From contig JAEMRK010000001.1 in assembly GCA_016463375.1 (NCBI GenBank), positions 17,604-81,603 of the forward strand: a stretch of DNA of 64,000 nucleotides. The letters are read 5' to 3'. The DNA is from Parachlamydiales bacterium (GTDB lineage: Bacteria; Chlamydiota; Chlamydiia; Chlamydiales; JAEMRK01). The position numbers and the translations under genes were made by a program. The notes beneath the pieces are model-generated. The model was not told where the DNA came from. It was given only the letters and a program-made list of their open reading frames with translations, and did no database searches. Below are positions 5,341 to 5,982 of this stretch, one piece after another; the first letter of the stretch is position 1; every line of letters starts with the position of its first letter.

Positions 5341-5454
5341 TTAGTTTTTGTCTTTATTACGTTTTTTCAACCACGAGTTAAACTCATCTGGCGTTATACC
5401 CAAACCAGATATTGTATTTATTATGGCCGATATTTCAAGATTTTGGCCGATAAA
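5341..5454 (-). pseudogene. Possible remnant of an XRE-type helix-turn-helix gene (C-terminal fragment, no start codon)
   Basis: The minus-strand frame reads FIGQNLEISAIINTISGLGITPDEFNSWLKKRNKDKN* between two stop codons. Upstream in the same frame are stop-interrupted repeats of [FI]GQ[IKN]. Confidence 0.3.
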
Positions 5455-5650
5455 TTACCAGGTTCTTTTATCCATTTTATTAGCTATTTGTCCAAAAAAA
5501 CACGTTATTTGTCTATTTTATCGTCTCTTTTGTCCAAAAACTCGCCTAATTTGTCCAATATTTGAGATTATTTGTCAAAAATCTGAATTTTTCTCAAAAT
5601 TCGAATTTTTTGGCCGGGATGCCTAATTTTTGGCCGACATTTTGACCAAT
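5421..5650. repeat. Iteron-like array of about 10 degenerate direct repeats (core TTTGKCCRA), including five head-to-tail 21-bp units
   Basis: Units start at 5486, 5507, 5528, 5549 and 5570 (ATTTGTCCAA / ATTTGTCTAT / TTTTGTCCAA / ATTTGTCCAA / ATTTGTCAAA). Related TT(A/T)TGGCCGA copies lie at 5421 and 5441, TTTTGGCCG(G/A) copies at 5607 and 5627, and TTTGACCAAT at 5641. Confidence 0.7.
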
Positions 5651-5982
5651 GTCGATATTGAATCATAGTCTCTTATTAGGACTATTATTTAGCTAATATC
5701 AATTTCTCATTAAAAGTTCAGGCCATGGCTTTTTTATAGCATCGAATTTAAGAATTTCTTTAGTTAATCTACAACTACTTATTGATTTTGAGTGTTTCGA
5801 AAAAACGCCGGTGTTTAGAAAAAAAGCTTTCCTTAGTAAGCAAGTATTAGTACTAAGAATCCTTAAAGGAAATAATAAGCTGTTTTAATAGCCGATATAA
5901 AAGTTTTAAACGGCTCAAGGTTATTTTAAACTTAAAAACACAAAATGCTATATTGTACTCATGCCAATTATAGGATTAATGC

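Follow-up and report, generated by a model that had tools for sequence, protein, structure and literature searches.

The DNA that we analyzed (the window, 64 kb in full, from a Parachlamydiales bacterium) holds an AT-rich gap between a GNAT gene and an MFS transporter gene, and in this gap lie about 12 copies of the core WTTTGKCCRA, all on the + strand of non-coding DNA (5421–5660; sequence reading and register layout). The surrounding genes and the individual units of this array are collected in Table 1. The GC content is 0.31–0.36 across 4–9 kb and 0.317 for 5001–6000, and the stretch 4127–9043 is a low-GC patchwork of DUF6624, GNAT, MFS and F-box protein genes. An earlier note on this DNA had named the two flanking genes and placed the array in an accessory block. 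Both points were confirmed; the array lies in a lineage-specific variable region next to tRNA-Leu.

Table 1. Genes, array units and open frames at the locus, in window positions.
Feature	Position	Strand	Remark
ORF, 494 aa	16–1500		
clpP	1550–2131		
dapF	2088–2915		
UPF0158	3001–4092		
tRNA-Leu(taa)	4127–4211	+	conserved block upstream, variable region downstream
DUF6624	4277–4765		
GNAT	4787–5332	+	
AT-rich GNAT–MFS gap	5333–5982		650 bp
Open tail ("HTH remnant")	5341–5454	-	37 codons and stop; not recognisable as a gene
92-codon ORF	5348–5626	+	ICPxxxx heptads; open across the array; uncalled in the public assembly
Left flank	5421–5464	+	two TTWTGGCCGAT units, 5421 and 5441, 20 bp apart
Unit	5421	+	TTATGGCCGA
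Unit	5441	+	TTTTGGCCGA
Unit, degenerate	5465–5485	+	CTTTTATCCA; bridges left flank and central block
Central block	5486–5590	+	five units in exact 21-bp register, TTTGTCCAA type
Unit	5486	+	ATTTGTCCAA
Unit	5507	+	ATTTGTCTAT
Unit	5528	+	TTTTGTCCAA
Unit	5549	+	ATTTGTCCAA
Unit	5570	+	ATTTGTCAAA
19-bp unit pair	5570–5607	+	TTTGTCAAAAATCTGAAT / TTTTCTCAAAATTCGAATT
Unit, degenerate	5589	+	TTTTCTCAAA
Right flank	5608–5660	+	units 5608, 5628 and 5640
Unit	5608	+	TTTTGGCCGG
Unit	5628	+	TTTTGGCCGA
Unit	5640	+	TTTTGACCAA
MFS transporter	5983–7233	+	
F-box gene	7246–7965	-	
Hypothetical gene	7971–8483	-	
ClpX-like ATPase	9044–10135		

For the flanking genes, we compared the locus with its counterparts in relatives. 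Five relatives found through UPF0158 (80–88% identity) were examined; four of them share the glyA-clpP-dapF-UPF0158 block, the genes downstream of it differ in all five, and the array is absent from every one. In place of the region seen here, they carry a hypothetical gene and an unrelated MFS gene (27% identity) with ~100 bp upstream of it (L203), a tRNA-Leu followed by a methyltransferase and an APH-type kinase (L204), an AAA_14 ATPase (L205), aspS (L206), or, behind different upstream genes, an E1/transketolase-type enzyme (L207). The earlier note had considered that relatives might hold an intact gene across the region; none was found. The closest non-identical MFS homologues, ~65% identical, lie in other gene contexts, and no array is present near them at three loci (L056–L058). 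The best relatives of the GNAT protein come from Paenibacillus and a Coxiellaceae MAG (36–45% identity over most of the length). A GNAT-based scan of species genomes gave distant relatives only (36–45%, mostly Paenibacillus), none with the array, and the exact-protein look-up had no identical GNAT protein on record. The other copy of the locus, a single 2.2-kb Logan contig from run SRR12685687, is base-for-base identical and shows no variation. Because the array is absent from the relatives and from the MFS homologue loci, we consider it lineage-specific; it sits in a patch of acquired genes that is prone to recombination, and these comparisons indicate that the MFS gene does not have it as a conserved control element.

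The ClpX-like ORF (363 aa) contains AAA_2 and ClpB_D2-small domains, gives no hit for the N-terminal zinc finger and lies 7 kb from clpP. In the UPF0158 protein, an acidic run precedes a long tail rich in lysine and alanine that looks histone-H1-like, and the protein overlaps short tandem repeats at 3946–4005. Two mechanically called ORFs, 3869–4765 (+) and 3816–4211 (-), were rejected as artefacts running across the tRNA-Leu gene; the real gene in the 3869–4765 stretch is the DUF6624 ORF (~4277–4765).

Layout of the array and conservation of its core

The successive spacings of the array are 20, 24, 21, 21, 21, 21, 21, 19, 19, 20 and 12 bp, so that the units stand 19–21 bp apart apart from one spacing of 24 and one of 12. 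Two types of core are present: TTTGGCCGA occupies the two flanks and TTTGTCCAA the centre, that is, GGCCGA-type and GTCCAA-type cores, and the consensus WTTTGKCCRA is a near-palindrome of TTTGG/CCAAA. The five 21-bp units at 5486–5570 and the flanking copies that the earlier note had listed are all real, with coordinates correct to 1 nt; its list had overlooked the degenerate units at 5465 and 5589. Tandem Repeats Finder calls only 5567–5611 (period 19, 2.2 copies) and misses the rest, because the whole units are too divergent.

The clustering of the motif at 5421–5660 is not due to chance. In the 64-kb window TTTGKCY has 58 matches versus 54 expected, and 8 of the 58 fall within 5347–5635, all of them on the + strand. 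Scanning with a 12-nt matrix at a threshold of at least 12 bits gave 9 hits in 5421–5640 and 2 in the remaining 64 kb, with no second cluster of the core motif in the 64 kb. The array thus holds 9 same-strand hits per 300 bp, compared with a maximum of 1–2 in 100 shuffles and at most 1–2 in ~700 kb of unrelated genomes. The autocorrelation of the sequence peaks at lags of 21, 42 and 20, with z scores of 4.8, 4.0 and 3.1, respectively. The array is real, local and uniform in strand, with two-turn phasing, as first described, and its geometry is indeed that of iterons and of cooperative operator arrays. A scatter of the motif at similar density, which would have spoken for a generic feature, was not seen within the window by motif count or matrix scan.

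What is conserved in the array is the core only. Among the six strictly phased units (5465 included), the first 10 positions have a pair identity of 0.71 and the other 11 one of 0.35, the latter compared with 0.29 expected from composition. We simulated a 21-bp tandem repeat that decays uniformly to the observed overall identity and scored a contiguous 10-nt block; the observed contrast between core and spacer was reached in 0.3–0.4% of these simulations (p ~0.004). Uniform decay of whole units, as would define a simple tandem repeat or minisatellite, is thus not what the array displays, and the cores, which contain G/C, are kept within DNA of ~30% GC. The cores appear to have been retained, or to have been the sole similar part from the outset, while the spacers were randomised. 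Such core-only conservation is the signature of short candidate binding sites at fixed phase and not of a decaying minisatellite. Additionally, the array stretch ranks first among 3188 windows for A/T tracts phased at 10.5 bp, and the ten best of these windows all start at 5321–5561. Because the A/T tracts repeat every ~10.5 bp, the DNA at the array is predicted to be, and should be, intrinsically bent.

The perfect palindrome ATTTGGCCAAAT, which shows the core in idealised, symmetric form, has a single occurrence at 14646–14657, ~9 kb from the array. No Rfam family was found in the region, the sole hit being a chance match of 14.9 bits, and the RNA fold of the region has z = -2.5, again with no family match.

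Replicon-type elements and same-core arrays elsewhere

Within ~4 kb of the array there are no genes for an initiator, a partition protein, an integrase or a transposase; its neighbours are the DUF6624, GNAT, MFS and F-box genes. When 16 initiator proteins were compared with the gap by tblastn, similarity was found inside the repeats only, and custom profiles for four initiator families placed the frames of the gap mid-field among 1788 six-frame segments. The gap contains no DnaA box (up to one mismatch), its blastn comparison with PLSDB plasmids and INPHARED phages returned nothing meaningful, and the search for a direct-repeat copy of the tRNA 3' end, as the mark of an att site or island boundary, was negative. 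The suggestion of a decayed replicon or prophage control region, made in the earlier note, is backed by analogy only; rep, par and integrase genes, a DnaA box and a plasmid or phage match are all missing.

The array falls within known kinds of element. With the theta-plasmid iterons of the Rep_3/RepA type it shares one-way direct repeats, a spacing of about two helical turns and AT-rich DNA, here predicted to be bent, and the Rep_3 iterons of the metagenome loci L124 and L187 have the identical 9-mer TCGGACAAA / TTTGTCCGA as their core. At least three same-way direct repeats about two turns apart are clearly present. A unit conserved over 17–22 bp is not: the array keeps ~10 nt, while theta-plasmid iterons are conserved over 17–19 bp, and the verified iterons of L124, L187, L059 and L052 over 17–21 bp. 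Theta-plasmid iterons also lie beside rep and often near DnaA boxes; the array has neither, as no initiator gene adjoins or overlaps it. The irregular spacing at the edges (24, 19, 19 and 12 bp) likewise counts against reading the array as iterons. Partition centromeres such as R1 parC, pSK41 parC and F sopC consist of 4–12 phased direct repeats whose short, partly palindromic cores are coated by an adaptor protein to give a curved complex, and they lie directly upstream or downstream of a parA/parM-parR/parB operon. Many phased repeats and a partly palindromic core are found here too, but there is no adjacent par operon and there are no par-like genes within ~4 kb. Arrays of sites spaced by ~20 bp and containing GACAAA are also known from the TnsB sites of Tn7/CAST and from the ends of Mu, and such sites near a tRNA gene are what the locus shares with them. 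The window, in contrast, lacks a second inverted array, a transposase, and a terminal TGT with target duplication. A Tn7-like transposon end was accordingly rejected, as there is no second inverted array in 64 kb and no transposase nearby.

Within the same phylum, the Chlamydia plasmid is an iteron-dependent replicon with Pgp2 as its initiator (PMC11895440). The array has no DNA similarity to any PLSDB plasmid, the chlamydial ones included, and no Pgp-like genes lie beside it. The Chlamydia iteron sequence is presumably unrelated to the array core.

Scanning IMG/VR for three phased cores gave 16 distinct viral arrays, six of which sit inside PHROG-confirmed replication-initiator genes (L046, L051/L059, L052, L054, L075 and L078) with the labels O-like, DnaD-like and replisome organiser. 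These are origins embedded in a gene, and the 21-bp period, being 7 codons, keeps the frame. [quoted passage not shown] The phage locus L059 encodes IGQNVSA three times by ATTGGACAAAATGTCTCAGCC. In our window the minus strand at 5654–5640 reads ATTGGTCAAAATGTC, that is IGQNV, and matches the L059 iteron in 14 of 15 nt, so that this locus shares with the array not only the 21-bp period and the core, as the phage in-gene origins do in general, but also strand and frame. The phage in-gene arrays differ in having 2–7 near-identical units within an intact ORF that carries an N-terminal winged-helix domain; in the window the frames are broken and no domain is detectable beside the repeats.

A wider metagenome scan furnished at least 120 loci, 110 of them with an array on analysis. 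In 74 of the 110 listed, the array is spanned by no ORF of 150 aa or more, and many of these ORF-less arrays, among the loci listed, are near-perfect 19–21-bp satellites on AT-rich, ORF-poor contigs. Initiators are few among the 36 listed cases that do have a spanning ORF, and the genes beside the listed intergenic arrays are mostly housekeeping genes. Classical iterons beside Rep_3 genes occur in two of the listed arrays (L124 and L187), with DnaA boxes in L124. Possession of a phased core hence does not alone make a sequence an origin, and the finding that ordinary intergenic repeats or satellites make up most of the listed same-core metagenome arrays counts against the iteron reading. The satellites TTTGTCCAAAATTTCGATT and TCTTGTCCGAAAAAGCATATT were seen in the Ga0208946 loci (for example L098 and L118) and also in L169 and L208, on AT-rich, ORF-poor, eukaryote-like contigs.

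Over L046, L052, L054, L059, L075, L078, L095, L100, L124 and L187, where L095 and L100 are classed by sequence resemblance and not by family match, the 9-mer TCGGACAAA / TTGGACAAA, phased at 19–22 bp, is the iteron core in no fewer than five initiator classes that seem unrelated. The core WTTTGKCCRA of the array thus recurs as an iteron core across classes that are apparently unrelated. In the form TTTGKCCRA (reverse complement TYGGMCAAA) it is found in in-gene arrays of the HTH_36/O-like, phrog_11233, Lin1244_N and DUF1376 classes and in non-coding arrays of the Rep_3 class.

Origin and possible role of the array

We tentatively read the array as an orphan, iteron- or centromere-like element that a mobile replicon left behind downstream of tRNA-Leu and that is now inert or used only in trans, a reading to which we give a probability of roughly 0.4. 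It would comprise about 12 putative sites, each made up of a ~10-bp core, to which one sequence-specific DNA-binding protein would bind. As the sites point the same way and lie about two turns apart, the bound proteins would be aligned on one face of the helix, and the bent DNA predicted from the in-phase A/T tracts could be wrapped by them into one nucleoprotein complex. Iterons of plasmid and phage origins, and partition centromeres of the repeat type, act in this manner. The source would be a plasmid- or phage-type origin or partition site of a mobile replicon; at present the array may be inert, or a protein whose gene lies elsewhere may be the only one to bind it. We consider an orphan most likely because the array lies in a patchwork of acquired genes near tRNA-Leu and no cognate gene adjoins it. 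An improbable variant is that the array serves as a live, centromere- or iteron-like landing pad on the chromosome of a Parachlamydiales bacterium with an obligate intracellular life, bound in trans by a protein from a co-resident plasmid or phage or from elsewhere in the chromosome. Like incA of P1 and datA, which act by titration or handcuffing of an initiator, such a landing pad could titrate or handcuff a replicon initiator, or it could nucleate a bent complex that controls the neighbouring acquired genes.

The reading frames of the gap bear on two further explanations, in which the array descends from a gene. The earlier note had seen on the minus strand a likeness to the tail of an XRE-type HTH protein, and the visual similarity between ...ISGLGITPDEF... 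and the closing part of an HTH domain is all that favours a remnant of such a regulator gene. The first 14 codons of the tail are simply units 5441 and 5421 read in frame (FIGQNLE and ISAIINT). Neither HTH_3 nor HTH_31 nor any other Pfam or PHROG family matches the minus-frame pieces, even at E up to 10, and among 5.8 billion proteins there is no homologue of the tail, none sharing even three 5-mers. An XRE remnant is thereby effectively refuted and retains hardly any probability. The in-frame [FI]GQ pieces of the minus strand, which had also been pointed out, could be reproduced, but they follow automatically from the 21-bp period. A minus-strand pseudogene of a lambda-O-like initiator with in-gene iterons, whose 7 codons would read (I/F)GQ(N/K/I)xxx, has more in its favour. 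Lambda O is a phage replication initiator with an in-gene origin, viral same-core 21-bp arrays, as described above, sit inside initiator genes, and the L059 repeat IGQNVSA resembles the IGQNV of our minus strand. Moreover, the two variable core positions coincide with third codon positions (GGN for Gly, ATY for Ile), and a change of one base in GGA gives the in-frame TGA and AGA codons. On the minus-strand upstream side, ~320 bp would leave room for an N-terminal domain. Against this stand the stops in all three minus frames across the array and the frame shifts between units, and no intact ORF with an N-terminal winged-helix domain is present. The flanks match no Pfam or PHROG family and none of the four custom initiator profiles, the tblastn similarity is confined to the repeats, and a C-terminal domain is missing, as only 23 codons follow the array. 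Simple decay also fits poorly with cores that are well kept next to flanks that cannot be recognised, and because the two variable core positions covary, amounting to about two events, the wobble-position argument for past coding had to be downgraded. We accordingly regard such a pseudogene as a long shot. A winged-helix remnant spotted by eye at 5702–5884 (-) was ruled out by profile searches. On the + strand, the 92-aa ORF matched translated satellites only among 1.84 billion representatives and is a by-product of the repeat.

Two explanations without a lost gene or replicon have to be weighed against the orphan. The array could be a functionless, degenerate tandem repeat, in which a 19–21-bp unit was expanded by slippage and then decayed, with the core as a chance survivor. 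The 19-bp repeat detected at 5567–5611, the frequency of near-perfect same-core repeats of 19–21 bp in AT-rich, ORF-poor metagenome contigs and the mostly housekeeping neighbours of intergenic same-core arrays are in line with this, and the GGCCGA flanks versus GTCCAA centre fit a duplication history. Some metagenome satellite units also resemble units 5570 and 5589; kinship of these two with the 19-bp eukaryote-like satellites was however left aside, since by rough estimate the resemblance is at chance level (~3–4 such matches expected by chance in ~1200 comparisons). What makes a degenerate repeat somewhat unlikely in our view is that uniform decay yields the core/spacer contrast in only ~0.4% of simulations, that the spacers are random while G/C-containing cores persist at ~30% GC, and that 64 kb hold no other such array. 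The other explanation, which the earlier note had put forward as an operator array for the MFS gene, is a live cis-regulatory array to which a regulator encoded elsewhere would bind cooperatively. This regulator could possibly be of the LytTR type, with bent DNA assisting; LytTR sites have the geometry of a 9-bp repeat and a 12-bp spacer. The array is located 323–562 bp upstream of the MFS start codon and shares its strand with both flanking genes, core-only conservation and helical phasing suit operator arrays, and a sigma-70-like site is present at 5925–5954, just before the ATG. Comparison between genomes does not back an operator role, though: the ~65% identical MFS homologues at three loci elsewhere have no array, and the MFS of L203 is a different protein with a short upstream region. 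No regulator gene adjoins the array, the promoter and terminator scan gave no more sites than shuffled sequences do, and 12 sites, each at a distance of over 270 bp from the likely promoter, would be an unusual arrangement. Judged from these sequence comparisons, a regulatory array for the MFS gene seems unlikely.

If the array indeed binds a protein, it would mark where a plasmid or phage replicon has left its trace in the genome of an environmental Parachlamydiales bacterium, or would serve such a replicon as a docking site in trans. To our knowledge, replicons and control elements are barely charted in this group, and genetic tools are lacking. A defined element of origin or centromere type whose core is known would give a practical lead for vectors, provided that protein binding holds true. 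As an orphan that has neither a partner gene nor relatives, the array would be of value mainly as a flagged locus, and the phased 9-mer core that recurs across initiator classes may be of wider use.

Elsewhere, L126 (400–1150), and also L085, L152, L192 and L197, show a low-GC element whose non-coding region of ~800 bp is packed with TTTTGTCCGAAAA sites in both orientations and lies near contig ends; this region is probably the origin or centromere of some plasmid or phage.
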